Shown here in pieces: positions 1,576 through 64,000 of a stretch of 64,000 nt of DNA. The stretch comes from a virus. Under the pieces are notes generated by a model. That model ran no database searches. It was not told where the DNA came from and saw only the letters and a list, made by a program, of their open reading frames with translations. Made by a program: the position numbers and the translations under genes. The stretch is taken from positions 1-64,000 of IMG/VR virus record IMGVR_UViG_3300046512_000168; one strand, 5' to 3'. Position 1 is the first letter of the stretch. Each line of letters begins with the position of its first letter.

Positions 1576-1604
1576 CCCATTGCAACGGGTTGCACCAGAA
1601 TGTA

Positions 1605-2894
1605 ATGTGCGCCCACATATGCAGCACCAGCGGGAGCAGCGATTTGGCGCGGTACGAGACAATGAGGGGGGCGTGGAGACCAAGCCAGCCCGTCCAGCAA
1701 GACGACTTTCATACCCGCGTCGAGATGACCGACGGCGCAGGGTCTTCGTTCATCTCACACGGTCTCGGCGCGTTTGTTCGCTCCGTCGACTTTGCCGGCC
1801 GCGCAAACAGCTTCCTCACCCTCAATGTGAGCCGCCCAGGAATGCACTCCCTGTGGTACGCAATCGACCCGATCGGCTGCGTGTACTGGGACGAGCATCG
1901 CTGGTCTTTGATGCGGCAATTGCGCGTGGATGGTGTCAACGCCAAGACGTCACGCGTCGAGGCCGGACATCTCGTCATCACTAACGGCGTGCAGACCAGA
2001 GACGTAACGATCCAGCCAGAGCATCTGCCTACAGCCAGACCGGGCCTGACGCTCGATGCGGCCATTGCCGAATTCTGGTCGATCTTCCTCGAAGCCACCC
2101 GTGAGATGTACGAGATCGCCGGCCGCCCAAGGGTGACCGCCCTCCTCTCAGCCGGCACTGACAGCACGCTCGGCACCATTGCCCTGCGCGAGATCGGCGC
2201 TGACGTGCACGCCGTCTGTGTCGGCCGCACCGAAGACGATTTCGACGCACGCTATGCCCGCAACTATGCTGCGCAGCTCGGTGTGCCCTACACCTTCCTG
2301 CCCCTGCCGGCAGATACACCGGCCCTCAATCAGCTAGCCTACGACGCCGTCGCCGCCTCAGAGTATTCTGAGATGTCGAACACACTGATGGCCATGTGCA
2401 CGACACTTGTTAGGCGCTGGGCGATCGAACAGAAGCGTCCGTGCCTTTGGAAGGGTCACTATGCTGATGACCTGCTCGGCACCAGCAACGCGACATACGG
2501 CACCTTCAAGAAGAAGTTCCCAGCGCAGACCGATCAGGAATGGTCCGAGTACCGCGCCTCGCTCTACCAGCACATCATCCCGAACGACATGCAGGTCGCC
2601 CAGGTCTGCCGGCGAGACGGCGCAATCTGGCGCTCGACGTTCACCCACCCGAAGGTCGCTGAATTCGTCTGGTCGATGCCGAAGGCCGTCGTGCCGCTGC
2701 GCCTGATCAAGCCGCTGTTTGCCGGCGCGTGCGAGCTATTCCTAGACCCGACAACCTGCTCGTGGAATGTCGACGAGAAGAAGGTCGGCTACTACACCGG
2801 CTCGGGTATCGGGAAAATTCGCCTCGAAAACCCAGTGCTCGGGGACGACAACTTTAGACGCCTCTACAAACTCGCCAAGGAACGGCTGACATGA
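1605..2894 (+). CDS. Asparagine synthetase B-like ATP-dependent amidoligase/amidotransferase
   Basis: ATG at 1605 gives Ntn-type MCAHI; HTRVEMTD resembles HxRLSIxD; PP-loop LLSAGTDS; KGHYADDLLG resembles SGEGADELFG. Confidence 0.8.
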   Translation: MCAHICSTSGSSDLARYETMRGAWRPSQPVQQDDFHTRVEMTDGAGSSFISHGLGAFVRSVDFAGRANSFLTLNVSRPGMHSLWYAIDPIGCVYWDEHRWSLMRQLRVDGVNAKTSRVEAGHLVITNGVQTRDVTIQPEHLPTARPGLTLDAAIAEFWSIFLEATREMYEIAGRPRVTALLSAGTDSTLGTIALREIGADVHAVCVGRTEDDFDARYARNYAAQLGVPYTFLPLPADTPALNQLAYDAVAASEYSEMSNTLMAMCTTLVRRWAIEQKRPCLWKGHYADDLLGTSNATYGTFKKKFPAQTDQEWSEYRASLYQHIIPNDMQVAQVCRRDGAIWRSTFTHPKVAEFVWSMPKAVVPLRLIKPLFAGACELFLDPTTCSWNVDEKKVGYYTGSGIGKIRLENPVLGDDNFRRLYKLAKERLT

Positions 2895-3349
2895 GCCTCT
2901 ACCCCGCCTACATCCCGCCGCACCCGAAACACCCCTCATCCTTCGACTTCCAGGTCGTCGAATGCGGCGACATCGGAAAGGCCCTCATCACCCACCGTCC
3001 CTGGAAGCGCGGCGAGTTTATGGCCCGCTTTGACGGGGTCACCGTCGGACACGTTTACCAGCACACGCTGCAGAAGACGCCGTCGGTCCATATTCTCGAT
3101 ACGCACTTCATCGGCATGCTGGCGCATTCGTGCGATCCGAACATCATGCTCGATATGGAGCAGCAAGAGATGTACGCGCTGAAGGACATCGCCGAGGGCT
3201 CGACGCTGTCGATGGACTACGCGTCAACCGAGGATGTGCTCTTCGTCACGTTCGGCTGCGGCTGCGGGTCGATAAACTGCCGTGGCTGGATTACCGGCCG
3301 CAAGCAGGCGGCGCCGGCCGATTTCCGCTGCCTGACACCCATCGTTTGA
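2891..3349 (+). CDS. SET-domain (plus post-SET) methyltransferase
   Basis: LAHSCDPN, ALKDIAEGSTLSMDY and post-SET CGCGSINCRG. Confidence 0.88.
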   Translation: MSLYPAYIPPHPKHPSSFDFQVVECGDIGKALITHRPWKRGEFMARFDGVTVGHVYQHTLQKTPSVHILDTHFIGMLAHSCDPNIMLDMEQQEMYALKDIAEGSTLSMDYASTEDVLFVTFGCGCGSINCRGWITGRKQAAPADFRCLTPIV

Positions 3350-3372
3350 AACCCGTTGCACCAGAGAGAACC

Positions 3373-3759
3373 ATGACTGCTCCAGAATATCGCTGCATCA
3401 CCCGCCATGGCCGCAAGGTCTACGGCCAGCACATGCTCATCAACGCCAAGGGCTGCATCCCGTCGCTGAAAGACATCCCTTACATGAAGGACTTCCTTGT
3501 CCGCCTGGCCGACGACATCGACATGGTGCGGTTCGGCGAGGCACACGTACACCGTTTCGGCTCCGGCATAGAGATCGGCCTGTCCGGCTTCCAGCTCATC
3601 GAGACCAGCCAGGTCAGTTTCCACTCGAACGACGCCGCCCGTGACATCTATCTCGACGTGTTTTCGTGCAAGGAATACGACGAGAATGCTGTCGTCGCCT
3701 TCCTGCAGAAATGGCTGGAACCCAAGACGATCGAGACGCAGGTGATCTGGCGCAGCTAA
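3373..3759 (+). CDS. speD: Pyruvoyl-dependent S-adenosylmethionine decarboxylase family protein
   Basis: GQHMLIN, GLSGFQLIETSQVSFH (self-cleavage Ser and catalytic His), YLDVFSCK; ATG at 3373. Confidence 0.82.
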   Translation: MTAPEYRCITRHGRKVYGQHMLINAKGCIPSLKDIPYMKDFLVRLADDIDMVRFGEAHVHRFGSGIEIGLSGFQLIETSQVSFHSNDAARDIYLDVFSCKEYDENAVVAFLQKWLEPKTIETQVIWRS

Positions 3760-3821: not shown

Positions 3822-4913
3822 GTGACACGCTACCAGGACATTCGCCTATCCCGGCATTTCACCCTGCTGGACTTCATGCAGGACCGTGATCTCTACATGA
3901 GCGGGCAACCGATCCCGCTCTCCGAGACAATCAACGAGGACCATATCTATCTCGGCAAGCGCCTCTGCGAGGAGCTGCTGGAGCCGATGATCAAGATTGG
4001 CGGCCCCTGCTCGATGGCGGCCGGATGGTGCCCCTCCAACGCAGGCCATGCGCCAACCACGCCGCACATCTGGGGCGCTAAGGGCGTGGCTTGCGACGCG
4101 GCTTTCCACGACTGGGTCAACCAGGACCGCTCGCCGATCAAGATGCTGGAAGAGGTGATCAAGGCCGGCATCCCCTTCGAGCGGCTTATTACCTATGCCG
4201 GCTCCGAGTACATGTGCATCGCGTGGAAAGAGCGCCCGCGCTACGCCCTCTACGAGAACATGCGCATTCCAGGCCAGGTCAAGCCGGCCTACATGCAGCA
4301 CACCCGCACCATGGGCCGCCCCGATAGCCTGCCGCAGACCCTGATGCACCGAGCCGACTGGAGACGCGGCCCCAACGAAACGATCTACCACACGCGCAGA
4401 TCGCTCCGGCCGCAGCATGTGCGCCTGTCTCGCTACTTCACCCTCCTGGACTTCTGCCGAAGCGAGATCGGCATGGAGATCGGCGAGTGCTGGGTGCTGC
4501 CGATCGAGGCCGCCAAGCAGGCCTATTACGGCCGGATGTTCGGGGAGATCATTGACCCTGTCGTGGCCGAGATGGGCCGCGTGTCTGTCACCCAAGGCGT
4601 CGTCCCTCCAGGTCTCGCAAGGCGCATGGGCAAGGATGCGGAACTGTTCACCTGGACCAAAGGGCCTGCCCAGGTGCGCTTCCTCCTGCCGCTAGGTGCG
4701 GACTGGGAGCGCGCGCTCGATATCATTTCGCAGCACGACAACCTGCTTGGCGTCGACGCAACCGATCACCCGTCAGGCGCGGCGGAGATCACCGTCACCA
4801 TAAACCCGTTCCAGGTCCGCACTATCTACTCCGGCGGCTACCCGTTCGGTTACTACGACGGCGAGGTGCCGGACTACATCCCAGCAAGGGCGCGCGCCAA
4901 GCTCGGCATATAA
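3822..4913 (+). CDS. Protein with two tandem peptidase M15A-like (DD-peptidase/endolysin-like) domains, degenerate
   Basis: Internal duplication IRLSRHFTLLDF / VRLSRYFTLLDF; first copy has TPHIWGAKGVACD resembling SxHxxGxAxD. Confidence 0.55.
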   Translation: MTRYQDIRLSRHFTLLDFMQDRDLYMSGQPIPLSETINEDHIYLGKRLCEELLEPMIKIGGPCSMAAGWCPSNAGHAPTTPHIWGAKGVACDAAFHDWVNQDRSPIKMLEEVIKAGIPFERLITYAGSEYMCIAWKERPRYALYENMRIPGQVKPAYMQHTRTMGRPDSLPQTLMHRADWRRGPNETIYHTRRSLRPQHVRLSRYFTLLDFCRSEIGMEIGECWVLPIEAAKQAYYGRMFGEIIDPVVAEMGRVSVTQGVVPPGLARRMGKDAELFTWTKGPAQVRFLLPLGADWERALDIISQHDNLLGVDATDHPSGAAEITVTINPFQVRTIYSGGYPFGYYDGEVPDYIPARARAKLGI

Positions 4914-5008
4914 AATTGCAACGCGTTGCATTTAATTGTTGACGAACACTTAGACATATGTCACTATCAAAGCATAGGAAATGAGCAAGCCATAGAGGAG
5001 ATAGCCAA

Positions 5009-5912: not shown

Positions 5913-6515
5913 ATGGCGACGCGCTCGGGCATTCACGTGCAGATGACGAACGGCCAGTGGGCGGGCATCTACTGCCACTCGGACGGTTATTGGTCGTGGA
6001 ACGGCCAGAAGCTGCACGAATTCTATAATTCGCAGGCGCTCGCCGAGGCGCTAATCAGGCTTGGTGATATTTCGATCATTAACGAGGAGATCGGCGAGAA
6101 GCACGACTTCGACTACCGCAACAAGCTCTACAAGAAGTACACCAAGAATTTCGACACAGACTACGTCGCCATGCACAACGACCCCGAGTACGTGCGTCTG
6201 TCGCGCATGTGCAACGTCTATGGCCGCGATCGAGGAGAAAAGAATACCCAGGCACGTAGAGGTCCGACGCTGGCAAGCGTCTTGGTAGACGAGAGCTACG
6301 TCTACGTTTGGCGTGACGGGCAGTGGTTTGGCACCAACGAATACATAGAGAATGACGATGCCATTCACTCCGCCCTGATCGCCAGCCTGCGCCCGCTGAA
6401 GGACATCCTTTTCCTGGAAAACATCAAAAGGGACGAGAGCGGCTGGCCAGAGACCATCCGCCGCCGGACATCCTACCGACCGCCTCCCCCGACGAAGCGC
6501 GCCATCGCCCTTTAA
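5913..6515 (+). CDS. Conserved phage hypothetical protein (MxTRS..IYCHxDGY family), ends KRAIAL
   Basis: MATRSGI..IYCHSDGY..G..L..Y pattern; AAGGAG RBS. Confidence 0.7.
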   Translation: MATRSGIHVQMTNGQWAGIYCHSDGYWSWNGQKLHEFYNSQALAEALIRLGDISIINEEIGEKHDFDYRNKLYKKYTKNFDTDYVAMHNDPEYVRLSRMCNVYGRDRGEKNTQARRGPTLASVLVDESYVYVWRDGQWFGTNEYIENDDAIHSALIASLRPLKDILFLENIKRDESGWPETIRRRTSYRPPPPTKRAIAL

Positions 6516-6626
6516 ATTTTGCAACCCGTTGCAATTTCTGACGCTTCCGCTGTTGTCACGTCGGGGGCGTTTACGATATGGTGCGCGCAACTGCATCCTA
6601 CATATTTAGCATTCGAGGAAATCCCG

Positions 6627-7436
6627 ATGTCCGCGCCGTCCAATCAGTACAAGGTTGACATGCTCGCACTGGATGAGATCATCCCTTACGAGAACAACCC
6701 ACGGAACAACGAGCCGGCCGTCGACGCGGTGATCGCCTCGATCGTGTCGTTCGGCTTTCGCGTCCCGCTGCTCGTCGATCGCAACAATGTCCTGGTCGCT
6801 GGCCATACCCGGCTCGAAGCGGTCAAGCGCATCATCCAGCGCGACCCGACGCGTGCGGCCGATCTCGGCCAGCTCCCCTGCTTCCGCGCTGACGATCTGA
6901 CAGAGGATCAGGTCCGCGCCTTCCGCCTCGTCGACAACAAGACCTCCGAGCTGGCCGAATGGAACTTCGACATGCTCGCGACCGAAGTCGAGCTGCTGAC
7001 CGAGGCCGGCATCAACCTCACCGAATTCGGCTGGGCGCAGGAAGAAATCGACTGCCTGAAGTCTGTTGTCGCCGAAGACTGCCTGGACCCGTCGACGTGG
7101 GAACGTCCGGCCGAGGAGGCAGACGGCGTCAATGGTGCGATGACCGCAGCCCGCTCCCTGTCTCACTCGGCCGACGGCTCGTCCGTCCGCGTCACCATCG
7201 GCACGTTCGGCTTCATGATCCTGCGCGACGACTATGAGAAGTGGGCAGAGGCTGTCATGGCCGAAAACTCCTTCGACTTCGAGCGCGTCAACGATGAGGC
7301 GGCCCGCCGCCTTGGTCTGCTCGAAGCCAAGCAGGCTCGCACGAATTTCTTGAGCAGCGTCTACTCGACGAACGCCGCCGCGCCGGTGACTGTCGCCGAG
7401 CAGAAGGACGAAGAGACGGCAAACCTGGAGGCCTAA
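6627..7436 (+). CDS. ParB/Sulfiredoxin N-domain protein
   Basis: PYENNPRNN..SIVSFGFRVPLLVD..AGHTRLEA..AFRLVDNKTSELAEW; GAGG RBS before ATG 6627. Confidence 0.88.
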   Translation: MSAPSNQYKVDMLALDEIIPYENNPRNNEPAVDAVIASIVSFGFRVPLLVDRNNVLVAGHTRLEAVKRIIQRDPTRAADLGQLPCFRADDLTEDQVRAFRLVDNKTSELAEWNFDMLATEVELLTEAGINLTEFGWAQEEIDCLKSVVAEDCLDPSTWERPAEEADGVNGAMTAARSLSHSADGSSVRVTIGTFGFMILRDDYEKWAEAVMAENSFDFERVNDEAARRLGLLEAKQARTNFLSSVYSTNAAAPVTVAEQKDEETANLEA

Positions 7437-7443
7437 GCCGACC

Positions 7444-9054
7444 ATGAACAAAATAGACCTTGTGGCACTTAGCCAACTGGAGCCAGCGGTCTACAACCCC
7501 CGAGAGACGGACCCCTTCCGTCTCCGGCTCCTCCAGCTCTCCCTGACCAAGCTCGGTTTCATCCTGCCGCTCTACGCGACGCCGAACGGCCATCTGCTGT
7601 CCGGCCATCAGCGTCTGCTCTGCGCCGAGCTGCTGCAGTCCAACCACGCGCCGATCGTCTACGTGGACACCAAGATCGAAGCCTCGCGCAATATCAACCT
7701 GGTCTTCAATCGCGCCACCAACGACATGAAGACGAGCGACACGTCCGATCGGCTATTGGCGTCGATGAACCTCGACAAGGTGACGGAGCTGGCCGCCTCG
7801 ATCTCCGACAAGAAGGTCAACACGCCGGAATTCTACCGCTGCATGTCGGCCGAGCTGCAGCCGATCGACGACCTCTTGAAGATGGATAAGGCCGGCTACG
7901 AGAGCCCGGCTGTCTCGATGGCCGCAAAGCTGTTTCGCTGGAATTTGTTCATGCCGCTTGTCGTCACCGACACTGGCCGCATCATCAACGGTTCGTTCCG
8001 CCTCTACGCCGCAGCCGACCGCCAGTCTAACTGGGAGTTCGAAAAGCACATTCCGAAGGGCATGTACCCGGTCGTGACCATTCCAGACGCCGAGGGCGAT
8101 CTCGCCGTTACCCTCCTGAACATGATCTCGATGCGCTTCACGCTGGAAAAGCAGTACGCCGACCAGCTCCGCTTCGGTGCCTTCCGCCGACCGACCAACA
8201 TCGTCAAGGACATCCTGCCGCCTCTGCGCGTCTGGGTAGACGGCCGGCCGAAAGCAGCGCACGAAAGCCTGAAGGACCCGGAGAAGTTCTGGCACGGTTT
8301 CCGCAAGGAGCACGGCGAAAATCTCCTCGACTTCGGCGCCGGTCAACGCCGGCAGGAAGACATCCTCGCCAAGAAGGGCATCGACTGCCTGTCCTGGGAG
8401 CCTTACCCCTGCCCGCAGGAAAAGGACCCCGAGCGCCTGGACGAGAGCACACCCAACGGAGAGCCGAGCCTCACACTGGTTCGCCGTCTGACGGACAAGT
8501 TCCTGGACGAGATCGCTGCGGGCCGTTCGTTCTCGGCGATCACGCTCGCCGCCGTGCTCAACTCTGTGCCGTTCGAGATCGACCGCCGTTACGTGCTGCT
8601 GATCACATCGGCGCTCTGCTCCTACGGCACCCGTCTTGTCGGCTCGGTGCGCCATGTGCGCTCGCAAGACAGCGTTCACATTGCGAGGACACGTGTGTCC
8701 AGCGACGGCAAGGCACACATGGCGATGTCCATGTTCCCGCTAGACTATGAGCCAAACCTGACGCTTGGCGACATCTCGGTCATGCCGAAGGTGCAGCGCT
8801 TCCACACACCGGAAGAAATCGACGCACTGCTGAAGCTGTTCTTCATGAAGACAGAGATCATTGACGGCGGCCAATACATCTTCTTCCGCTGCACAGCGCC
8901 GCGTCGGCCGAAGCCGGAGCTGCTGAAGAAAGCGCTGCTGCACGAATTCAATCTGCCGTACCGCGATGGCGAGACGATCAACAGGGGCAAGGAAGCATTG
9001 CAGGCGTTCGGGCAGCGCCTCAGTATCAATTTCGATGAGGTCCCCGATGTCTGA
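7444..9054 (+). CDS. ParB-N domain(s) fused to a SAM-dependent (amino-type-like) transferase
   Basis: PAVYNPR..GFILP..LSGHQRL; second ParB-like IINGSFRL; LLDFGAG (motif I) and AAVLNSVP. Confidence 0.8.
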   Translation: MNKIDLVALSQLEPAVYNPRETDPFRLRLLQLSLTKLGFILPLYATPNGHLLSGHQRLLCAELLQSNHAPIVYVDTKIEASRNINLVFNRATNDMKTSDTSDRLLASMNLDKVTELAASISDKKVNTPEFYRCMSAELQPIDDLLKMDKAGYESPAVSMAAKLFRWNLFMPLVVTDTGRIINGSFRLYAAADRQSNWEFEKHIPKGMYPVVTIPDAEGDLAVTLLNMISMRFTLEKQYADQLRFGAFRRPTNIVKDILPPLRVWVDGRPKAAHESLKDPEKFWHGFRKEHGENLLDFGAGQRRQEDILAKKGIDCLSWEPYPCPQEKDPERLDESTPNGEPSLTLVRRLTDKFLDEIAAGRSFSAITLAAVLNSVPFEIDRRYVLLITSALCSYGTRLVGSVRHVRSQDSVHIARTRVSSDGKAHMAMSMFPLDYEPNLTLGDISVMPKVQRFHTPEEIDALLKLFFMKTEIIDGGQYIFFRCTAPRRPKPELLKKALLHEFNLPYRDGETINRGKEALQAFGQRLSINFDEVPDV

Positions 9055-9805
9055 TCTGGCGAACGTCCAGCCCGCACCGTCACTGCAACCCGTTGCAACG
9101 CCACGCCACTTCCCAGCCGACCCGAACCGTTTTGTCTTCGACGCGTCTGTCGCGGCGATCTTCGACAACATGGCGCTGCGCTCTATCCCCGGCTACGGTG
9201 GATACTTCGAGCGCGTCAGTGAGATCGTTTCGCGCAAGCGCCTGCCGAAATACAGCCAGGTCTGGGATATGGGCGTGTCGACGGGTGCCGGCCTCGACGC
9301 CGTCAAGCGCGCCACCTTCCATCCGTTCGTCGAGTATTTCGGTATCGACATCTCCGAGCCGATGCTCGCCAAGGCCTCCGAGCGTTGCCCCTACGCCACG
9401 ATGCAGGTGCACGATCTGGAGAAGGGGCTGCCCGACGTCGAGATCGGGAATGTGTCCGTGTTCCTCTGGAGCTGGACGCTGCAGTTCCTGCCGTCCAAGG
9501 AGCTGCGCCGCGAGCTGCTGCTCAAGTCGGCCGAGGCCCTGCATCCGGAAGGCTGCATCTTCATCGGCGAGAAGTTCGTCAACTCAGACCCTGTCCTGCA
9601 GGAGGTGCTGGAAGACGGCTACTACAAGTTCCGTCTGGAAAACGGCTACACGATCGCCGAGATCAAGGCCAAGTCGAAGGCGCTCGAAGGCTCCATGTGG
9701 CCTTGGACGCACGAGGAGTTGCTGGAAACCGCCGAGACTGCCGGCCTGCGTGCTCGCCCGCTCTACCGTCATTTCAACTTTGGGGGCTACGTCCTTAGCC
9801 GCTGA
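9047..9805 (+). CDS. cmoA: CmoA-like carboxy-SAM synthase / SAM-dependent methyltransferase
   Basis: FDASVAAIFDNMALRSIPGY, DMGVSTG, WTLQFL, GEKF, ENGY..EI..K..LE, FNF are collinear with CmoA motifs. Confidence 0.8.
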   Translation: MSDLANVQPAPSLQPVATPRHFPADPNRFVFDASVAAIFDNMALRSIPGYGGYFERVSEIVSRKRLPKYSQVWDMGVSTGAGLDAVKRATFHPFVEYFGIDISEPMLAKASERCPYATMQVHDLEKGLPDVEIGNVSVFLWSWTLQFLPSKELRRELLLKSAEALHPEGCIFIGEKFVNSDPVLQEVLEDGYYKFRLENGYTIAEIKAKSKALEGSMWPWTHEELLETAETAGLRARPLYRHFNFGGYVLSR

Positions 9806-9840: not shown

Positions 9841-10728
9841 ATGACCAACAATAACGACGAGTTTCCCCGCATTCGACGCCGGACGCGCCTCCCGATCAGA
9901 GGGATGCCGCCTGGTAGTGCGTCTGTCGTCCAGCTCCCCGAGCCCATGCGCCCGCCGCCGCACGACGAGATCGACCGCGAGATCGACGACGCGCTGCGCT
10001 CCGGCCGACGCATCGATATGTCACGCGCCTTCCCAGAGCCGCCGCCGGCTGCGCCAGGTGAGAACCTGCGTGCCCATCAGCCCGTGCCAGGCGTAGACGC
10101 GCCGGACATCGACCTAGACCAAATCCCGACTATCACCGACCAGAACATGACGCCGGCCGCGCGCCTGCGCCACGTCGCGACGATATCGCCGACCTACCTC
10201 GACGAATACAAATCGCGCCTTGTCCATCGCCTGCTGATGCGCCGCTTGCCGCTCGATACGATCGCGGCCCAGCTCGGCTGCTCGGTGCGCATGGTGCAGG
10301 TGATCAAGACCAAGCTGAACAAGCGAGCCCAGCGTCAGGCCAAGATGCTGAACGTCTATGACGTCGCGGCCGAAAGCCTGCGCTTCTACAACGAAGTGCG
10401 CGGTCTCGCTCTGCGCCAGGCAGACAGCACGTCCAACAATATCAAGGACCGCCAGGTCGCGCTGCGCATCGCGCTCGAAGCCGAAAACGACAAGGTCCGC
10501 TTCCTGTCCGCATCCGGCTATTTCGAGCATATGCCGTTCGTCCCGGATCAGTCGAAGACAGCCGACCCCGAGCAGGAGAAGGTCGACACGACCCTGTCCA
10601 TGATGGCGGCCATCGTATCCGGCGAGACATCTGTCGAGGACATCGACGCATTCTTCGAGAGCGACGAGCTTGGCGCCGAAGAAGGCACCGATTACGACGG
10701 CCTCGACCCGAGCACGGACCTGCTCTAA
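9841..10728 (+). CDS. Probable terminase small subunit / HTH protein
   Basis: HTH-like LDTIAAQLGCSVRMVQ; abuts the large terminase gene. Confidence 0.5.
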   Translation: MTNNNDEFPRIRRRTRLPIRGMPPGSASVVQLPEPMRPPPHDEIDREIDDALRSGRRIDMSRAFPEPPPAAPGENLRAHQPVPGVDAPDIDLDQIPTITDQNMTPAARLRHVATISPTYLDEYKSRLVHRLLMRRLPLDTIAAQLGCSVRMVQVIKTKLNKRAQRQAKMLNVYDVAAESLRFYNEVRGLALRQADSTSNNIKDRQVALRIALEAENDKVRFLSASGYFEHMPFVPDQSKTADPEQEKVDTTLSMMAAIVSGETSVEDIDAFFESDELGAEEGTDYDGLDPSTDLL

Positions 10729-12732
10729 ATGGCCAATCTCGCGAGCAACGACAAGCTGATGGAATGGGTGCGCAAGTCCGAGCGGATGTGCGCGGTCGCC
10801 GAGGCCTATGGCGAGAAGCGCAGCGCCCGGATCATCAACCATGCGCTGGTCCAGTTTGCCGACAAGGACAACAAGGGCTTTCTGCACGCCCTATCACGCA
10901 TGAAGCGCACCCCGTGGACGATCGACGAGTTTCTGCACTCGAAGGAGTTCATGGCGTCCGATACCGAAAACTCGCTGATGGACATCTGGCCGGCGCTGAA
11001 GGATGACATTCGTCTCCTCAATCCAGATGTCATGGCCGGCGAGAAGCCCGTCGGCGAAGCCTTGCTCGGCGGTGCGACCGGTACGGGCAAATCCGTCACG
11101 GCCATCGTCACGACGCTAAACCAGGCGCTGCTGATGAGCTGCTTCAAGGAGCCGCAGCGCCTCTTCAAGCTGTCGATCACCACGCAGGCCATGTTCTTGC
11201 TGATGTCCGTCTCGCTGACGGTCACCAAGCGCGCGATCTACACGCCGCTCCGGCAGATTTTCGTGAACATGCCGTACGTGAAAAAGCACGTGCCGTATGA
11301 CCGCTACAAGGAGAGTGAAATCTCCATGGAGGGCAACGTCATCATTGCCCCTGTCCTCGCCAGCCTGCAGGCCATGGTCGGTCAGGCCGTCGCCGGCGGC
11401 GCGATCGACGAAATCAACTTCTTCTCGATCGTCGAGAACTCGAAGATGACCATGGGGCCGTCTGGCCAGGGCGGACGCTGGGACCAGGCAGAAGAAGTCG
11501 AAACCACGCTCGCCCGTCGTAAGAAGAGCCGTTTCCCTACGACCATGGGCATGTCGTTCGGCGTCCTCGTCGTCTCGTCGTCGACCCGCTACGAAGGTGA
11601 TTACCTCGACCGCCGCATCGATCAGGTACGCGAGTTCGAGGAAGAAGGCGTCATCTCGTTGCGCCACAAGCAGTATGAGGTTCAGCCGCAGGACAAGTAC
11701 CGGCAGCATCCGCCGATGCGCGTCCTGGTCGGCTCCGATACCTACTCCACCCGCATCCTCAAGGGCATGAACGAAGGCGACGAAGGTTACGAGCGCCCCG
11801 GCCTCGACTATCCTGAGAACGCCCAGGTCGAGATCGTTCCTGGCCTCTACAAGCCAGACTTCCAGAAGGACCCTGAGAACGCACTGCGCGACGTCATCGG
11901 CATTGCCACCAAGGCGATCAAACCGTTCATCTCGCAGCGCCACAAGGTCATCGACGCTGTGCTGGCGGCCAAGGAAGCCGGGATGCAGCCGCTTGTCCTC
12001 AAGCAGAACGTCGACCTTGCCGACGACGGAATGCCGCAGATCGACGAGGATGCTCTGCCGGATGATCTGGACACACCGCGCGCAATCCATGTCGATTTGT
12101 CGAAGACCAAGGACCGTTGCGGCATTGCCATGGTCAAGATCGTCGATTGGAAGGACGTGCTCACGGTCGACGACCGAGGCAATGAGATGGTCACCACCCT
12201 GCCCGTCTACGCGGTGGAAATGGCGATCTCGATCCAGCCCCATGTCATGAAGCCGCTCGACATCGCCGACGTGCGCACATGGATCACTCAGCTTTCGCGC
12301 TTCTGGGGCTTCAACATCGACAGCGTCACCTACGACGGCTTCCAGTCGGCCGAAAGTATCTCGATCTTGCGCAAGCAGGGTGTGCGCGCCGAGCTGATCT
12401 CTATGGACGAGACGCCGGAGCCCTACGAGTACCTGCGCCGCACGCTCTACGAAGACCGCATGCTGATGATCGACAACGACATCCTGCGCACCGAGCTGAT
12501 CTCGCTTGAATGGACCAAGGAGATGCAGAAGATCGACCACCCGCCGAAAGGCTCGAAGGATATCTCTGACGCTGTTGCCGGCGCCGTTTACGCACTGTCG
12601 AGGAAGCGCCGCACCCGCGCCCAGGTGCAGGTCAGCCAAGGCGAGCATCGTGAACGCGTCCGCGTCCGGCGTTCGCTTGAAGAACGGCCAGAAGGCCGAC
12701 AGAGGCCAGCAGGAAAGGTGGCACGCCGATGA
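10729..12732 (+). CDS. terL: Terminase large subunit
   Basis: Walker A GGATGTGKS, Walker B AIDE, SS coupling motif, RNase H-like HVDLSKTKD, YDGFQS, DHPPKGSKDISDAVAG. Confidence 0.92.
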   Translation: MANLASNDKLMEWVRKSERMCAVAEAYGEKRSARIINHALVQFADKDNKGFLHALSRMKRTPWTIDEFLHSKEFMASDTENSLMDIWPALKDDIRLLNPDVMAGEKPVGEALLGGATGTGKSVTAIVTTLNQALLMSCFKEPQRLFKLSITTQAMFLLMSVSLTVTKRAIYTPLRQIFVNMPYVKKHVPYDRYKESEISMEGNVIIAPVLASLQAMVGQAVAGGAIDEINFFSIVENSKMTMGPSGQGGRWDQAEEVETTLARRKKSRFPTTMGMSFGVLVVSSSTRYEGDYLDRRIDQVREFEEEGVISLRHKQYEVQPQDKYRQHPPMRVLVGSDTYSTRILKGMNEGDEGYERPGLDYPENAQVEIVPGLYKPDFQKDPENALRDVIGIATKAIKPFISQRHKVIDAVLAAKEAGMQPLVLKQNVDLADDGMPQIDEDALPDDLDTPRAIHVDLSKTKDRCGIAMVKIVDWKDVLTVDDRGNEMVTTLPVYAVEMAISIQPHVMKPLDIADVRTWITQLSRFWGFNIDSVTYDGFQSAESISILRKQGVRAELISMDETPEPYEYLRRTLYEDRMLMIDNDILRTELISLEWTKEMQKIDHPPKGSKDISDAVAGAVYALSRKRRTRAQVQVSQGEHRERVRVRRSLEERPEGRQRPAGKVARR

Positions 12733-47489: not shown

Positions 47490-47587
47490 TGCAACGGGTT
47501 GCAACGGAAAGTTATTGACAAACACTTAGATATGTAGGATAACAAATATAGAAGTTTAGGCAGCGCCTTGAAGGAGACCACTGAATT

Positions 47588-52318: not shown

Positions 52319-52585
52319 ATGAAGACCATCCCGCAAATCCGCGCCCGCATGCATGAACTGGCCGACATCCTAAAGTGCAAGGAGCTGCACGAGCTGGCCG
52401 ACGCCACCAAGCGCCGCAAGCCGGTGCGTAGGGCTCCGCCTGTCCATGCCGTCGTCACGACCAAGCTCGCTCAGGAAGTCCGAGACTATGCCGCTCGCTA
52501 CCCGTCGGCACACCTGTCCGAGATCGGCTTGAAGTTCGACCTCAATCAAGGCAGGGTTTCAGAAATCTTGGCTGGAAAGCGTTAG
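52319..52585 (+). CDS. Small HTH protein
   Basis: LSEIGLKFDLNQGRVSEIL. Confidence 0.7.
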   Translation: MKTIPQIRARMHELADILKCKELHELADATKRRKPVRRAPPVHAVVTTKLAQEVRDYAARYPSAHLSEIGLKFDLNQGRVSEILAGKR

Positions 52586-53363: not shown

Positions 53364-53753
53364 ATGGACAACCTAATCGTTCGAAAGCGTGTGCTAATGA
53401 ACAACGAGAACGTGCCACCTCCGAAACCGGAACAAGACTGGTACATGCGCTGGCCGAACGGATCGGAAGTCTACGCGGCCGGCGGCACGGGGCAGATCGA
53501 GCAGCAGCTCGGATGGGTTATCCGACGCGGAGCCGAGCACCTGGCTTTCCAGCGCACGGGCCCAGGTGAGGACGACATAAAATTCGCCGGCAGTGCGCCG
53601 GATGCGTCCTCGGCTATAGTCAAGCTGGGCGGCAAACTCTGGACTATCGGCTACAAGCCGCCTAGTCCCGCGCCCGCAAAGTCCCCTTCCCAGACAGCAT
53701 CTTCCGAACATCTGCCGGCGATAAGGAAAAGAGTTCGCCAGCCTTCTCAATAG
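53364..53753 (+). CDS. Hypothetical protein with IVRKRV at the N-terminus and IRKRVR at the C-terminus
   Basis: TGATG overlap start. Confidence 0.65.
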   Translation: MDNLIVRKRVLMNNENVPPPKPEQDWYMRWPNGSEVYAAGGTGQIEQQLGWVIRRGAEHLAFQRTGPGEDDIKFAGSAPDASSAIVKLGGKLWTIGYKPPSPAPAKSPSQTASSEHLPAIRKRVRQPSQ

Positions 53754-54024
53754 ACATGCCGTATTCAACGTATGTCTTCATCTTCTGGTACTCGGACGCG
53801 GTCATCAGGGGGCCGATTTCATCTATGAAAGTCTCGGCGATCTTTTCCTTTACCGCGCCCAGATGTTCGTCTGGGTTGTTGAAGCCCATGCGCTCGAAGG
53901 CGCTGCGCAACACCCGGTCAAGCATCATCGGCCGCTTGTATCCCAGAGGCACGATGGTCGAAGATAGCGCGCCAGCGAGGCGCTGCACGAGTCTCGGTTT
54001 TTCGGTCATCACCATACTGTTCAT
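53662..54024 (-). CDS. Lone minus-strand gene, C-terminal HTH (candidate regulator)
   Basis: AAGGA RBS before ATG 54024; GMSIEKAGELFSLSPADVRKML; fills a gap with no credible + strand gene. Confidence 0.6.
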   Translation of the reverse strand: MNSMVMTEKPRLVQRLAGALSSTIVPLGYKRPMMLDRVLRSAFERMGFNNPDEHLGAVKEKIAETFIDEIGPLMTASEYQKMKTYVEYGMSIEKAGELFSLSPADVRKMLSGKGTLRARD

Positions 54025-54448
54025 CTTGTTTTCTTCCTTCAATACAGTCCGATTTACTGTTCGTCCACTCTAAAGCGCCCACGGTTAACAGTTTGATAAC
54101 GCTAGATTTTACAGATGTAGGGGACAATTCCAGTGCAACGCGTTGCAGTATATTTGACAAACACTTTAATATATGGGATAGTGATCTTATCAAAGGAGGG
54201 CTACATATGCTAAGCATCACTAGCAGGGCAACCAAGAGAGACGTGCTTCTCGAAATAGATAAGGATTACAGTCGTCGCGGCTGCAGCTACGTGGTCTTCG
54301 CCAACGGCATTCCCGTCGACGGCGCGGCCACGATCATCAAGGCCAAGCGCGCCGCTAATGCTTTCGTCGGGGAACACGTGTTCGATCTCAAAGAGGCCCG
54401 CGTCCACGCATAAAATTGAAACCCGTTGCAACAGAAAGGTAACAACCA

Positions 54449-55240: not shown

Positions 55241-56149
55241 GTGACTATTGAACTCGTAACCAAGCCCTGGGTGGGCGTCCTGGCGCAGCCGCAGCTCAAT
55301 CTCGGCGTGATGGAGGCTTTCGCGGAAGAGCACGGCCTCGAAGAATTCGCCGGTGACTTCGGCGACCGCCCTGACACGCCGATCGGCCGCATCTTTCAGG
55401 CGCTCGAACGCGACGACGAAGCTTCGCACGCCGACCTCTTAACGGAATTCTCCGGCCGCTTCTGCTACCGCGCTTGGGACAAGGGCCGCTCAACCGGCGA
55501 ATACCTGAAGAACATCATCAGCGAGCGCCACGGAAGCGTACTTGCCCACTCGAACGTCTCCTTCATCATCACCGGCGTCTCGCGTTCCCTCACCCACGAG
55601 CTGGTCCGCCACCACGTCGGTACCAACCCGTCGCAGGAAAGCCAGCGCTACGTCACGGCCGAGGGTGGCGAGATCGAGATCGTCGGCTTCAAGGCCAATC
55701 GCGCCGTGGTACCACCGCTGATCATGAAGATGGCGGAGAACCCAGAGCTGATGACGCCTCGCGGCGAGAGCGTTGTCCTCACAGACTTCCTGGCGCACTA
55801 CGAGAACGCGCTGGACAGTTATCAGATTTGGCTTGACCGGCTGAAGGGCTCGATGTCTGCGCGCTTCGAAGACAACAAGACAATCGTCAAGAAGCGAGCC
55901 CAGGAAGCCGCCCGCTGCTTCCTTCCGAATGCGTCCGAGACGCGACTTGTGTGGACGATGAACCTGCGCGCCGCACGCAACGTCATCGAGCAGCGCGGCA
56001 ATCCAGGGGCCGATCTCGAAATTCGGCGCCTGGCCGTCGCGTTCACCCCGGAATTGAAACGCGTTGCACCGGAGACGTTCTTCGATTGCGAAGTCTACAC
56101 CGCCGCCGACGGCTTCGAGGCCGTGCGGGTGGAATACTCGAAGGTCTAA
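55241..56149 (+). CDS. thyX: Flavin-dependent thymidylate synthase
   Basis: GRFCY, HGSVL.H, SRSLTHELVRH..SQESQRY, EAAR..LPN, N.R, EIR. Confidence 0.95.
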   Translation: MTIELVTKPWVGVLAQPQLNLGVMEAFAEEHGLEEFAGDFGDRPDTPIGRIFQALERDDEASHADLLTEFSGRFCYRAWDKGRSTGEYLKNIISERHGSVLAHSNVSFIITGVSRSLTHELVRHHVGTNPSQESQRYVTAEGGEIEIVGFKANRAVVPPLIMKMAENPELMTPRGESVVLTDFLAHYENALDSYQIWLDRLKGSMSARFEDNKTIVKKRAQEAARCFLPNASETRLVWTMNLRAARNVIEQRGNPGADLEIRRLAVAFTPELKRVAPETFFDCEVYTAADGFEAVRVEYSKV

Positions 56150-56464
56150 GACGATGCAGCTTGGCGACAACACGAATTTTACATCGTTCTATGATACGGC
56201 ACAGAATTTCGTGAAGTTGGCGCAGTGTGGCGACGTGATGACGGGCACAGTCCTCTATCACCAAGGCCACGCAGTCGCCCGCATCGTCGACGATCGGCAC
56301 ATGCAGATCACGACGCGGAAGGACCTGCCGGCAGCAACGCATGGTCTGGCTGGCGTCGTCGGGCACGTCGCCAAGCGCAGCGGTATGCTTTTGATAAACA
56401 AAGACTTAAAGGAGCAAGCGACGCACATCTAAGACGCAAATTCTTGGTGCAACGCGTTGCAGGA

Positions 56465-56508
56465 AAACCTCGGCCGGGCCCATCCACCCCTGCCGGGGTT
56501 TTCTTTTT
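56465..56508 (+). terminator. Probable intrinsic terminator
   Basis: aaaacctcggc / gccggggtttt stem plus T tract. Confidence 0.6.
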
Positions 56509-56742
56509 GTGCACCGCACATTTTTTCTTAAAATCGCTGGAACCAAATTTATCGGCGTGCGTTTATAGCCCGTTATGCCTGCACTTGAGGGACGCACTGA
56601 TCCAAAATAGCTAGGTAAAACATAGTTGTAGACTCAACAGGTCTAAGTTATATTCACCGCGTCCACTTTTGCGCGTAGCATGCGAGTGGCAGGCATTCGG
56701 ACAGTCCCATTGGGAGGGCTGCTCCCGGAAGAAGGGGTTTAA

Positions 56743-57204
56743 ATGCTAATGATCAAGTACCATCGTCAGCCCGCAAAGGGCGATGAGAATGACTTGCAGA
56801 CCATCCTGAAAGACCCGGAGACGAAGGACTACCAGGACCTGCGCGACCGCGCAGCCTATGTCTACATCACCGGCACATTTCCGACGCATCTCCGCTCGTA
56901 CATGATGAGCCTGCTGCGCATAGGGACTGCGTACAGTTTGAAACCCGTTGCACTGGATGGCAGATCGGGTTCCATGGAGCTGACGCCTGAAGTGCGGAAG
57001 GCCCTCGACCTCGAAGATCACCCGATGGTTTCGCGCACGCGCGACTTCGTCAACGAAGGATACAAGATTTTCTTTCAGCGCGACGTAAACGAGCGCCGAC
57101 CATACTCCAAGGTCCTGCTTTACAAGAAGGACGGCGGGGTCATGCACAAGCTCGTCGTCCAGGCCGACGGCTCCATACTCGAAGGCTGGCCAACTCGTTC
57201 GTAA
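56743..57204 (+). CDS. Hypothetical protein
   Basis: 153-aa ORF after a 310-bp non-coding leader. Confidence 0.65.
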   Translation: MLMIKYHRQPAKGDENDLQTILKDPETKDYQDLRDRAAYVYITGTFPTHLRSYMMSLLRIGTAYSLKPVALDGRSGSMELTPEVRKALDLEDHPMVSRTRDFVNEGYKIFFQRDVNERRPYSKVLLYKKDGGVMHKLVVQADGSILEGWPTRS

Positions 57205-57660: not shown

Positions 57661-58271
57661 TTGAGTGGATAGCAAGCATAGTACCAAATACACCACAAAC
57701 GAGATGGGCATTGGACGAGTTCATTACCTTGACTGCATTATTCGCCAGCGCCGCATTCGGTATATGGTACATTGTTCGAGCGATAGAGCGGCACACGCGC
57801 CGCATCATGACCGCCAATATTGAAAATCCGAGCAGACCATTTACTGTATCATTTTCGCCCGATGCCCCCGGTCTGCAGGACGCTTACCGCGTCGACGCCT
57901 GGGTCCGTTGCACCCCGCTTGAGGCACTATTTTTCAACCCCTCCTCTAAGAGGTGGCAGGGTTACCGGCAGATCGCCGGTCTCGGCTCTGCCTTCGTCAA
58001 CGGCGCCCTGGTCACATTCCGAGCAGTACCGACCGGCGTGTCGGAAGACTTCCTGGCCGAACTGACCGAGGCCGCCGAGGATGGCTTAATCCCTCCCGAT
58101 CTCCTCTCTCGCCTGGCAGACATGGACCCTAATGAGGTCTTCTCTCTTGTCGAGGCGATGGGCCTTGTCCGACAATTCAACACTGCACTTGAGGCGGCTG
58201 CCCAGCCAGAGACTCCGGAGCCGATACTGTCGGCCTTCCGCATCCAGCGTCGCGCCATCGATCTCGACTGA
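57657..58271 (+). CDS. Membrane-anchored hypothetical protein ending RRAIDLD
   Basis: One TM segment; TTGA overlap. Confidence 0.6.
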   Translation: MIEWIASIVPNTPQTRWALDEFITLTALFASAAFGIWYIVRAIERHTRRIMTANIENPSRPFTVSFSPDAPGLQDAYRVDAWVRCTPLEALFFNPSSKRWQGYRQIAGLGSAFVNGALVTFRAVPTGVSEDFLAELTEAAEDGLIPPDLLSRLADMDPNEVFSLVEAMGLVRQFNTALEAAAQPETPEPILSAFRIQRRAIDLD

Positions 58272-58386
58272 GAAAATTGCAACGCGTTGCAAACTGTAGC
58301 CGCGTAAACGCTACAGACACTTGTGGGTTTCAGCTTCGCGGAGTATGGTGCGCCAGTTTTCAGCATCAAAGTAGCGAGGCCCGATC

Positions 58387-61123: not shown

Positions 61124-61130
61124 GGACACC

Positions 61131-62078: not shown

Positions 62079-62156
62079 AGATTTTGCAACGCGTTGCAAT
62101 TTCCTCGCTGGACGCCGATTGACGCAGGCTACATTTCTAGCGTATTTAATCCAGCC

Positions 62157-62738
62157 ATGAGCAAGACGCCGAAGACATCGCTGACGAAGATCGTACGGTC
62201 GGATGACGACCGGCAGATCATCTATGGCGAAGTCTACGCTCCCAACCGGCTCGACACCTACGGCGAGATGATGGTCGCCGAAGACATCGAGCTGATGGCT
62301 CACCGCTTCATGCGGCTGGACCTGACGAAGTCCATCGACGTGAAGCACGACAACAAGCCGATCGAGGCTTACCCGGTCGAAAGTTTCATCGCTCGCGAGG
62401 GCGATCCGGATTACACCGCTGGCGCCTGGGTCATGGGCGTGAAGGTCGAAGACGCCGAGGTCTGGTCTGACATCAAGGCCGGCAACCTAAATGGCTTCTC
62501 CTTTCAGGCCATGGTCACCCCCGTCCAGCGCACGGTCGAGATCGAGGTCGTTCGCGACCAGGTCGGCAAGACCGAGCAGAATGACGATCACGAGCACTAC
62601 TATTTTGTGCAGCTCGACGAGAACGGCAAAGTGGTCAAAGGCAGAACCTCCAAGGCTGCTGACGGTCACTGGCATGAAATCAAGCGCGGCAGTGTGACCG
62701 AGAAGACGGACAGTCACAATCACCGCTTTTTTGTTTGA
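62157..62738 (+). CDS. XkdF-like prohead serine protease with His-rich C-terminal repeats
   Basis: IIYGEVYAP..DTYGE..IDVKH..VESFI..GAWV..W..IK.G.LNGFS; DHEH/GHWH/SHNH tail. Confidence 0.85.
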   Translation: MSKTPKTSLTKIVRSDDDRQIIYGEVYAPNRLDTYGEMMVAEDIELMAHRFMRLDLTKSIDVKHDNKPIEAYPVESFIAREGDPDYTAGAWVMGVKVEDAEVWSDIKAGNLNGFSFQAMVTPVQRTVEIEVVRDQVGKTEQNDDHEHYYFVQLDENGKVVKGRTSKAADGHWHEIKRGSVTEKTDSHNHRFFV

Positions 62739-62749
62739 GGACTGCACAT

Positions 62750-64000
62750 ATGAAGCGCGAAGCATCGAAGATCGTCAAAAAGGTCACCCTGCTCACCGAC
62801 CCTGAACCGCAGTTCAATTCCATCGTGAGGGCGGGCGCAAACGGCACGCCTCTCCGTGTCATCAAATCCGATGAACTCACTCAGGAGGCCGAGATGCCCA
62901 AGAACCTCAAGAACGGCACTGCCGATATTGCCAAGCTCACCTTCAAGGGTGACAACTTCAAGACCGAAGAGCAGGTCCAGGCCTGGCTCGATGCCGGCAA
63001 GTATGTCGAGACCACGATCAAGGCCGAGGATGACGGCTCCTTCACGGTCGAAGGCAATACCGAACTCGCCAATGTCCAGGAGATCGAAGTCGAAGACGGC
63101 GTCACCTCCTTCGTCGGCGAACTCGCCGAAAAGGCCAGCGAAACAAACGACACGCCGAACGCCGACGTGGTCGCGATCGAGGGTAAGAAGACGGAAGCAC
63201 CGACGACTGGCGCACAGAAGAGCGACGAAGAGCTGCGCGTCAAGGCCGAGGAAAAGGTCCGCACCGAAGCCGGCCTGTCCGAAGCTGACTGGGCCTCGCT
63301 GAACCAGTCCACGCGCGACAAGTTCACCGCCCCTGTCCTCGCCACCATGAAGGCTGAAGCCGGTACGCCGGAATTGCAACCCGTTGCAACGGATGCCACG
63401 GTCGAGGCTCCCGTGGTCACGGGCGAAGAGCCGGTCAAGCCGTCCGACGAAGTGCCGGAGCTGCTTGCCAAGTCCGAAGACGGCATCGTTTCCGTCCTCA
63501 CCAAGAAGGACTGCTACGACATCACCGAGATGGCTTCGATCATCCGCTCGCTGGCATGGCTGAAGGACAGCCTGGCTTACGACGCCTTCCAGGGCGGCGG
63601 CCTGTCTGCGGATGCGATTGCTTCCATGAAGACAGCGATCCAGACCCTCGGAAATATCCTCATTCAGATGGCATCCAACCACGTCGAGCTCGCCGTTAAG
63701 TCGGACGAAGCTCCGGTTGTCGATGCCACTGTCCCTGCTGCTGGGGAAACCCAGGAGAACGAAGTCAAGGCAGCTACAGCAGCCGAGACTAAGACCACTG
63801 CCAAGGAAGCGAGCAATTCGGACACGGTCGCTGACCCCGTTCTCGCCGCCCTCACTGCCCTGACTGCGAAGTTGGACGGCATGGAGACGGCGCTGAAGGA
63901 TGCCAACGAACGTGCAGAGCAGAGCGCAAAGAAGGCAGACACGCTGGCACAACGTCTGGAAAAGGTTGAAAGCACCTCCCAGACGCGCAAAAGCGCAGAT
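62750..64000 (+). CDS. Acidic probable capsid scaffold/assembly protein (3' truncated)
   Basis: ATG 62750 after GAGG; MKREASKIVKK..SIVRAGANGTPLRVIK; open to window end; follows the protease. Confidence 0.65.
   Translation, partial: MKREASKIVKKVTLLTDPEPQFNSIVRAGANGTPLRVIKSDELTQEAEMPKNLKNGTADIAKLTFKGDNFKTEEQVQAWLDAGKYVETTIKAEDDGSFTVEGNTELANVQEIEVEDGVTSFVGELAEKASETNDTPNADVVAIEGKKTEAPTTGAQKSDEELRVKAEEKVRTEAGLSEADWASLNQSTRDKFTAPVLATMKAEAGTPELQPVATDATVEAPVVTGEEPVKPSDEVPELLAKSEDGIVSVLTKKDCYDITEMASIIRSLAWLKDSLAYDAFQGGGLSADAIASMKTAIQTLGNILIQMASNHVELAVKSDEAPVVDATVPAAGETQENEVKAATAAETKTTAKEASNSDTVADPVLAALTALTAKLDGMETALKDANERAEQSAKKADTLAQRLEKVESTSQTRKSAD

Follow-up and report, generated by a model that had tools for sequence, protein, structure and literature searches.

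The ParB-family protein Noc of Bacillus subtilis uses an N-terminal amphipathic helix to tether DNA to the membrane, blocking division; its role is not segregation. KorB of the IncP plasmid RK2 forms a cytidine triphosphate (CTP)-dependent clamp that slides up to ~1.5 kb from its site, OB, and silences promoters (PMC11790492; review PMC13768133). Corndog, a Cluster O mycobacteriophage, carries 34 copies of the 17-bp palindrome TGTTCGG-N3-CCGAACA, about a third of them in genes, for which a dimeric binder with a role other than transcription initiation was predicted (PMC4351075). Cluster A mycobacteriophages carry stoperators for the repressor (gp71 in L5), some 20–35 genome-wide sites mostly in short intergenic gaps near stops (PMC9283540). 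Here we analyze a 14-bp palindrome, TGCAAC-NN-GTTGCA, that recurs throughout the first 64 kb (positions 1 to 64,000; the window) of IMG/VR record IMGVR_UViG_3300046512_000168, an 82,193-bp soil phage of ~60% G+C. Our data suggest that these palindromes may form a genome-wide array for a ParB-like protein that the phage itself encodes.

We observed 33 perfect copies in the window, compared to 0 in 100 dinucleotide-preserving shuffles. Another 13 copies carry one mismatch (left half TGAAAC in five, right half GGTGCA in three), and the whole genome contains 37 perfect and 17 one-mismatch palindromes. Genes were called heuristically, using a model of codon usage that had been trained on long open reading frames (ORFs) of this same genome. 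This gave 140 genes in the whole genome (138 on the + strand), which together account for 92% of the sequence. By these calls, 20 of the perfect window copies are intergenic and 13 are intragenic, and at least 16 of the 46 window sites of both kinds lie within genes. The initial annotation, made from the letters of the window, had listed the same 33 perfect copies at exactly these coordinates. Its 20/13 split was reproduced with our independent gene calls, and its expectation of 0.004 copies under equal base frequencies is arithmetically correct. The TGAAAC and GGTGCA variants that it described are present, but number 13 with the other one-mismatch copies and not about ten.

Eleven of the 13 intragenic perfect copies are read in the frame xTG CAA CNN GTT GCA. 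Those encoding LQPVA are at 9084–9097 (5′ end of ORF 9047–9805, 30 nt past the upstream stop), 18555–18568 (within 18476–18631), 21785–21798 (within 21547–22017), 25357–25370 (within 25125–26282) and 63375–63388 (within 62750–64132). LQRVA is encoded at 12883–12896 (within 12729–13277), 17578–17591 (within 17403–17633) and 26618–26631 (5′ end of 26590–27087), LQQVA at 16912–16925 (weak ORF 16644–16940), VQRVA at 23507–23520 (within 23068–23649) and MQPVA at 28991–29004 (within 28534–29850). The two others, at 15532–15545 (5′ end of 15494–16156) and 49234–49247 (within 48916–49887, encoding CNWLQ), use different reading frames, as had been claimed. Three or four of these copies (9084, 15532, 26618 and 16912) may be intergenic, because they are found at the very 5′ end of their ORF or belong to a weak one.

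The codons of the motif are rare in this genome (TTG 7%, CAA 11%, GTT 10% and GCA 19% of their amino acid). We observed that all 12 proteome peptides of the [LVM]Q[LPHQR]VA class were spelled with the motif codons, compared to 0.013 expected from codon usage. The class itself was ~40-fold over-represented (12 occurrences, 0.29 expected from amino-acid composition). Motif-codon spelling was also complete in two relatives, Aeromonas phage HJ05 (9/9) and the genome G004 (9/9), with the same result in the genome fragments G001 and G003. Because all 12 peptides use the rare codons of the motif, selection acts on the DNA and not on the peptide, as the initial annotation had proposed, and the sites are kept by selection at the DNA level. 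In alignments of orthologues, sites appear through substitution without indels, on which ground we rejected scars of mobile elements. One intragenic site outside the window, at 67123, occupies the same alignment column in the G004 orthologue, the two proteins being 45% identical. The gene at 62750–64132 has a single site in every one of four genomes, and no two of these sites share a column. The TerL, portal and major capsid genes contain no sites.

We assessed the spacing of the sites against random placement, which gives a gap coefficient of variation (CV) of ~0.96. The perfect copies in the window had a CV of 0.57 (P = 1e-4) with a largest gap of 4,900 bp (49234 to 54134); including one-mismatch copies, the largest gap was 3,807 bp. 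Across the whole genome, the CV was 0.71 for perfect copies (P = 0.018; largest gap 9.0 kb) and 0.67 for copies with up to one mismatch (P = 0.001; largest gap 3.8 kb, P = 6e-4). The 9-kb gap in perfect copies spans tail genes outside the window and is filled by three one-mismatch copies. A null model preserving the intergenic/coding split of the sites gave P = 0.04. The spacing test against a random model that the initial annotation had proposed thus showed a more even array, both here and in seven relatives (CV 0.42–0.72 and P ≤ 0.005 in each of the eight lattice genomes, up to one mismatch). The array is clearly under-dispersed, more even than chance, with a palindrome about every 1.5–3 kb in this phage and its relatives. 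"Near-evenly spaced", as it had been described, is too strong a wording for a window CV of 0.57 compared to ~1, and the statement that no gap exceeds about 4 kb fails for perfect copies, holding only with one-mismatch copies counted.

Searches for a close relative returned none in the phage collection by megablast or tblastn of the window, and none in IMG/VR by a conserved promoter word (described below) or TerL peptides. A metagenome scan with the gene at 23068–23649 gave matches of 27 residues only. The best TerL match was Aeromonas phage HJ05 (47% identity), which has the gene order ParB-like, ParB-methyltransferase, methyltransferase, terS, TerL in common with this phage. We collected 80 IMG/VR loci through the ParB-like protein. 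A full-length homologue was present in ~30 of the 80, of which ~25 carry dialects of the word; the ~50 loci with a homologue of the ParB N-domain only carry no dialect.

The identical word was found in this phage (82 kb, 37 perfect copies), HJ05 (79 kb, 16), G004 (85 kb, 29), G006 (96 kb, 48) and the fragments G001, G002, G003 and G005 (19, 6, 7 and 15). Dialects were found in G007 (TGAACC-NN-GGTTCA, 19 perfect copies), G008 (TGAAAT-NN-ATTTCA, 23), G009 (TGCAAT-NN-ATTGCA, 50) and G010 (93,191 bp; GTGCAA-N4-TTGCAC, 15). Each genome even has its own central two bases (CA/TG in 50 of 50 G009 sites, for instance), and their orientation relative to transcription had no consistent bias across 7 genomes. 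In each genome, 45–65% of the sites fall in the 6–10% of the DNA that is non-coding, and the remainder are intragenic. The lattice is therefore conserved, with dialects, across a wide phage clade. Cultured Samunavirus-type relatives are described as lytic (PMC10281142). Our literature searches on Samunavirus, SM1 and HJ05 returned genome announcements only, and we found no paper mentioning this word, or a lattice in Samunavirus-type or HJ05-type phages.

An all-against-all comparison of these genomes showed that a ~20-kb replication module of HJ05, G004 and G006–G010 is absent from this phage. Because the module is swapped here and the word is nevertheless the same as in HJ05, G004 and G006, the reader is not a replication protein, and we rejected a replication signal on the same ground. 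In place of the module, this phage carries ~45 kb of small early genes, for almost none of which a homologue could be detected.

To identify candidate readers, we compared all proteins of the eight whole lattice-bearing genomes by all-against-all phmmer. The families present in 8/8 genomes were the ParB-like family (short and long forms), the terS-like protein, TerL, portal, head protease and major capsid. The only non-structural proteins among them are the ParB/Noc/KorB-like and terS-like proteins. Hidden Markov models (HMMs) of 24 further families shared by the relatives gave one extra match in this phage, a small ORF at 65895–66290 in the structural-gene region. The best candidate reader is the short ParB/Noc/KorB-like protein (6627–7436, + strand, 269 aa, 8/8 lattice genomes). 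It is followed by a long paralogue in which a ParB N-domain is fused to a methyltransferase-like domain (7444–9054, + strand, 7/8 genomes). A second, weaker candidate is the terS-like protein, which has a helix-turn-helix (HTH)-like segment (9841–10728, + strand, directly upstream of TerL, 8/8 genomes).

The initial annotation had also named HTH proteins at 22803, 52319, 53662 and 57271 as possible readers. These are unlikely readers because they have no homologues in the relatives with the identical word. Neither they nor the terS-like protein had a Pfam match. The product of 53662–54024 (− strand, 120 aa) is encoded by the only minus-strand gene in the window and had no Pfam or PHROG match and no homologue in relatives. 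This gene diverges from the promoter at 54154 with a palindrome in the gap, a repressor-like position.

The protein encoded at 6627–7436 matched the PHROG ParB-like family (E 6e-44), and its closest ParB-like homologues are 65–91% identical. Its segment GHTRLEA aligns to GERRWRA of Noc (7nfu), and G59, H60, T61, R62 and A65 are invariant in 21 homologues. In an AlphaFold model (mean predicted local distance difference test score (pLDDT) 78), residues 7–109 match ParB, Noc and KorB, superposing on ParB CTP-binding domains (Z 11–12, root-mean-square deviation (rmsd) ~2 Å), and residues 110–157 form four helices that superpose on part of the KorB, Noc and Caulobacter ParB DNA-binding domains (rmsd ~4 Å). 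A disordered linker leads to a confidently modelled C-terminal domain consisting of a beta-hairpin and three helices. ParB, Noc and KorB have the same overall layout as predicted here (N-domain, helical middle, linker, C-domain), and the model contains the ParB/Srx N-terminal fold and the GxxRxxA motif of ParB-family systems. A putative cognate palindrome of 13–16 bp on the same replicon, another property of such systems, is present in the 37 perfect and 17 one-mismatch copies. In 4/8 genomes a palindrome precedes the ParB-like gene by 55–125 nt, with two such copies in G006; in the window, this site is at 6520–6533, 4 nt past a stop codon and 93 nt upstream of the gene. We found no ParA-type partner: no called protein contains KGGxGK[ST], and the only P-loop proteins among them are TerL, a PhoH-like protein and the tape measure. 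A ParABS partition system was rejected, as no ParA ATPase with a deviant Walker A motif was found among the called proteins.

Overall, these data suggest, with a probability of about one half, that the palindromes are a genome-wide array of binding or loading sites for a phage-encoded dimer, most likely the short ParB/Noc/KorB-like protein of 6627–7436 acting without a ParA. A dimer would dock on each 14-bp site and close there as a nucleotide-dependent clamp, like KorB or Noc. The clamp would then slide or spread a kilobase or two, and sites every 1.5–3 kb would keep the entire chromosome covered. At promoter-proximal sites, the protein could damp or insulate strong early promoters, as KorB does at OB operators. 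Coverage might serve the timing of expression, the organizing or marking of phage DNA for modification or packaging, or shielding. This mechanism would explain the under-dispersed spacing, the creation of sites inside tolerant parts of genes and why sites take a fixed position directly ahead of early promoters.

Several observations weigh against this reading. The DNA-binding region of the ParB-like protein is shorter than in KorB, Noc or ParB, and the overlay is only partial. Its C-terminal domain, folded alone (pLDDT 86), had no match in the PDB (best VIA Z 4.1, best Foldseek E 1). CTP binding is not assured because the nucleotide motif is GHTR and not GERR. When ParB-like residues were compared with the dialects, no clear pattern of covariation emerged. 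Although its word is identical, G004 encodes two very divergent short ParB-like proteins without the C-terminal hairpin. G009 uses TGCAAT, as do other genomes, yet the C-terminal strand of its ParB-like protein differs. The co-occurrence of the lattice with a ParB-like protein is confounded by shared ancestry, and the host test described below comprises one co-assembled contig, a single host-linked case. Because ParB-like residues do not follow the dialects and the G004 proteins diverge, the 6627–7436 protein is best regarded as a candidate reader.

We tentatively consider a more specific version, in which a partnerless ParB-type clamp loads at an evenly spaced, co-evolving lattice across a clade of 80–110 kb phages, cultured Aeromonas and Pseudomonas phages among them, and self-marks the whole chromosome, a role that is not known for any ParB protein. 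Possible purposes would be to steer ParB-fused modification enzymes or terminase to phage DNA alone, or to shield it from host defences. The gene neighbourhood contains the ParB-fused transferase and CmoA-like genes here, PAPS-reductase-like and IbrB-like ParB genes in G004, and always terS and TerL. This conserved neighbourhood hints at a link to DNA modification or packaging. The initial annotation had suggested loading of the ParB-fused modification enzymes as a function of the sites. This is not their core function, because G004 keeps 29 sites without the long ParB-methyltransferase form. In G004, the PAPS-reductase-like gene (SGGKDS motif) and a third, IbrB-like ParB-domain gene are at 77422–79135. 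This pair lies between the ParB-like genes of G004 and its terS, and differs from the ParB-linked putative DNA-modification pair of our window.

We assessed the position of the sites relative to promoters. The genome contains 17 copies of a conserved sigma-70-type promoter family (at 3766–57239 in the window), consisting of TTGAC[AG]AACAC, a fixed spacer and a GATAGT-like −10. Each promoter is 29 bp long, with a perfect −35 (TTGACA/G), a near-invariant 17-nt spacer (AACACTTAGAYATRTRG) and the −10. Because the spacer is conserved, something besides sigma-70 may read this family. A sigma-54 promoter reading was rejected since its register does not fit the consensus.

At ten of these promoters, all on the + strand and given from −35 to −10, a site ends 6, 6, 8, 8, 8, 9, 11, 11, 11 or 19 nt upstream of the −35. 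The 6-nt cases are the sites at 32428–32441 (promoter 32448–32476) and 54134–54147 (promoter 54154–54182), the latter in the gap beside the minus-strand gene. The 8-nt cases are at 4917–4930 (3 nt past a stop codon; promoter 4939–4967), 20561–20574 (promoter 20583–20611) and 23902–23915 (1 nt past a stop codon; promoter 23924–23952). A one-mismatch site at 52714–52727 lies 9 nt upstream of the promoter at 52737–52765. Sites 11 nt upstream are at 30755–30768 (promoter 30780–30808), 34873–34886 (promoter 34898–34926) and 47490–47503 (between a terminator and promoter 47515–47543), and the site at 18198–18211 ends 19 nt upstream of the promoter at 18231–18259. Two promoters on the same strand have the site downstream of the −10, by 23 nt at 27753–27766 (promoter 27701–27729) and by 10 nt at 38769–38782 (promoter 38730–38758), and five promoters have no site. 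In G004, which has a promoter consensus of its own, we saw a like arrangement, the sites being 7 or 19 nt upstream.

Promoter-adjoining sites thus make up 12 of the 46 in the window, with upstream spacings of 6–19 nt and no fixed position. Roughly one site in four has an operator-like placement, at about −50 of strong promoters that need no activator, and the rest are not at these promoters. Because about a quarter sit 6–19 bp upstream of strong early promoters, some sites probably also act as operators. The claim of the initial annotation that the palindrome is "not only an operator" is supported by the same count, and plain promoter operators were rejected, the sites being neither confined to promoters nor fixed in position (12/46).

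These positions would also suit a different, rather unlikely explanation, that another phage-encoded dimeric regulator, diverged beyond detection, reads the sites and that the lattice is a global transcription system, with operators at early promoters and roadblock or insulator sites past stop codons. The ten sites upstream of the −35 and the two just downstream among the 17 promoter copies, the many sites 1–8 nt past a stop codon or between terminator and promoter, and the same arrangement in G004 are consistent with such a regulator, as is the failure of ParB-like residues to track the dialects. The skeleton TGxAA-N4-TTxCA also resembles operators of the LacI/PadR type, and the AphA site is TGCAA-N4-TTGCA. 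However, no other non-structural protein is common to the genomes with the identical word, even with family HMMs, and the reader of an identical 14-bp word ought to be recognizably conserved. In addition, ~40% of the sites are intragenic, the majority are away from promoters, the even spacing is left unexplained, and a 6–19 nt spread keeps no single helical face.

We regard as unlikely that the terS-like small terminase subunit (9841–10728) reads the sites as pac-like marks that guide packaging from many positions. It is the only other non-structural protein in 8/8 genomes and has an HTH-like segment; the ParB-like, terS and TerL genes form a conserved block, and the word survives the swap of the replication module. 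Small terminases, however, normally recognize one pac or cos region built of repeats and not genome-wide palindromes of the dimer type. The putative recognition helix of the terS-like protein is not conserved among genomes with the identical word, its residues gave no clear covariation with the dialects, and neither the even spacing nor the promoter-adjacent positions would be explained.

A host transcription factor or nucleoid protein as the reader, with dialects that mirror different hosts, appears very unlikely. In its favour, the relatives infect Aeromonas, Pseudomonas and probably Paracoccus, the dialects vary between lineages, and the site skeleton resembles known types of bacterial operator. 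The initial annotation had suggested a search of host genomes, and we ran it on one host-linked assembly. The 5.4-Mb assembly of the Paracoccus sp. MKU1 isolate contains G006 as a contig of its own. This 96-kb phage contig carries 48 perfect and about eight one-mismatch sites, whereas the remaining 5.3 Mb of the assembly contains 0 perfect and 2 one-mismatch sites, at or below chance. A host regulon is disfavoured because MKU1 holds no perfect copy outside the phage contig, and a Chi-like or uptake-type signal was rejected on the same result. Moreover, HJ05, whose host is a gammaproteobacterium, and G006, whose host is probably an alphaproteobacterium, use the identical word. The G006 contig looks like a complete phage of the clade, and its presence in the assembly of an isolate suggests a carrier state, a plasmid-like state or phage contamination of the culture.

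The weakest explanation, that there is no dedicated reader and the sites are RNA hairpins, weak terminators or homology blocks driving recombination between promoter cassettes, is highly improbable: although sites lie at gene boundaries, metagenome joints fall at palindrome-promoter cassettes and a replaced spacer retains the palindrome, a hairpin of a 6-bp stem and a 2-nt loop is a poor one, pairing survives through G-U wobble in only 1 of the 17 one-mismatch variants, making an RNA hairpin unlikely, genuine G+C-rich terminators adjoin several sites, the intragenic sites were made by point substitution with rare codons, and recombination scars predict neither even spacing nor clade-wide dialects.

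The sequencing runs containing this phage are all rhizosphere metagenomes, none of them RNA. In one rhizosphere run (X7), a variant strain swaps 150 nt of spacer at window positions 18080–18229 for 22 nt that retain the TGCAACCCGTTGCA palindrome. Other metagenome contigs join palindrome-promoter cassettes of different loci, with joints near 23915/18230 and 23949/17576. These observations suggest that the cassettes are recombination points for module shuffling.

Numerous intergenic sites start 1–8 nt past the upstream stop codon, and several sit between a G+C-rich terminator hairpin and the following promoter. Beyond the sites given above, perfect intergenic copies directly follow a terminator hairpin at 1581–1594 and 45073–45086. 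Others lie 1 nt past a stop codon at 13719–13732 and at 41648–41661 (57 nt ahead of gene 41719), and 6 nt past a stop codon at 58278–58291 (95 nt upstream of the portal gene). The remaining perfect copies are at 46334–46347 (intergenic, upstream of the PhoH-like gene), 56448–56461 (intergenic) and 62085–62098 (past a terminator, upstream of the head protease gene). One-mismatch sites with the TGAAAC half are at 3347–3360 (overlapping the stop codon of 2891–3349), 45476–45489 and 54417–54430 (both intergenic), 56055–56068 (within 55241–56149) and 56939–56952 (within 56743–57204). Those with the GGTGCA half are at 14263–14276 (within 14016–14504), 34050–34063 (within 33863–34171) and 37569–37582 (3 nt past a stop codon), and another one-mismatch site is at 36492–36505 (within 36330–36731). 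We found no tRNA genes in the window.

Three one-mismatch palindromes (16334–16347, 16388–16401 and 16547–16560) fall within 230 nt of each other in a 487-nt stretch without a called gene (16157–16643), which may represent either an overlooked gene or decaying sites in a cluster. Two further stretches without a gene call, 37566–37919 (354 nt) and 56433–56742 (310 nt), each open with a palindrome right after a stop codon and could be small RNAs or missed genes. At 4890–4916, 6495–6519, 32400–32427 and 58250–58277, unrelated genes share terminal DNA (GCGCGCCATCG.TCTCG...) just ahead of the palindrome. This DNA encodes a common C-terminal peptide like RAIDL, and could represent a cassette at the DNA level instead of a tag on the protein.

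Most likely, the palindromes represent a multi-site array of the ParB type that lytic-type phages use as a lattice over the whole genome, a use that we found in no paper. If true, this would be the first virus to tile its whole chromosome with loading sites for a ParB-type clamp, and the sliding-clamp principle of KorB, known from plasmids, would then extend to phages. The very common ParB-like genes beside phage terminase and DNA-modification genes would gain a function, and the model could explain the iterated palindromes of some mycobacteriophages. The lattice is present in cultured relatives (Aeromonas phage HJ05 and Pseudomonas phages SM1, PaMx31 and UF_RH6), making the model directly testable, and the word is a simple sequence signature for members of the clade in metagenomes.

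Compared to described systems, the array resembles the Cluster A stoperators in having repeated sites across a phage genome near stop codons. Stoperators are asymmetric, oriented with transcription and serve prophage silencing, whereas the sites here have no consistent orientation, ~40% are intragenic, and cultured relatives are described as lytic in the source cited above. We rejected a stoperator array, as the two halves of the site are perfectly palindromic and not asymmetric and oriented. The likeness to Cluster O is closer: as there, more than 30 copies of one dyad-symmetric word are partly coding and mostly off promoters, and Corndog is likewise not obviously temperate and encodes a protein with a ParB-like domain. 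The word and the lineage are unrelated, however, and the genome organization is different. Corndog gp90 had no significant match to the 6627–7436 protein (E = 0.47). When we re-counted the 34 Corndog sites, they were clustered towards one end and not more even than random (CV 1.06).

Noc and its binding sites (NBS) share with our candidate system a ParB paralogue without a ParA and a 14-bp palindrome scattered in many chromosomal copies. Noc (7nfu) matched the ParB-like family profile in sequence and overlaid the model of the 6627–7436 protein with Z 10.1 over 139 residues. Nothing suggests membrane tethering here, the site sequence is unrelated to NBS, and the sites are far denser (one per 1.5 kb). 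KorB and OB differ from the system described here in number and placement, with 12 OB sites in RK2 compared to 54 sites that tile a lytic-type phage more evenly than chance, many of them intragenic. No ParA/IncC or KorA-like clamp-locking partner was identified here, the nucleotide motif is GHTR compared to GERR, and the DNA-binding region of the modelled protein appears shorter. In both, a ParB-family protein (here the candidate reader) is paired with many copies per replicon of a short palindrome, which measures 13 bp in RK2 and 14 bp in this phage, some beside promoters and others far from any. KorB (8qa9) overlays the model of the 6627–7436 protein with Z 11.4 over 133 residues, and its slide of ~1.5 kb would fit the 1.5–3 kb spacing of the sites in this phage.

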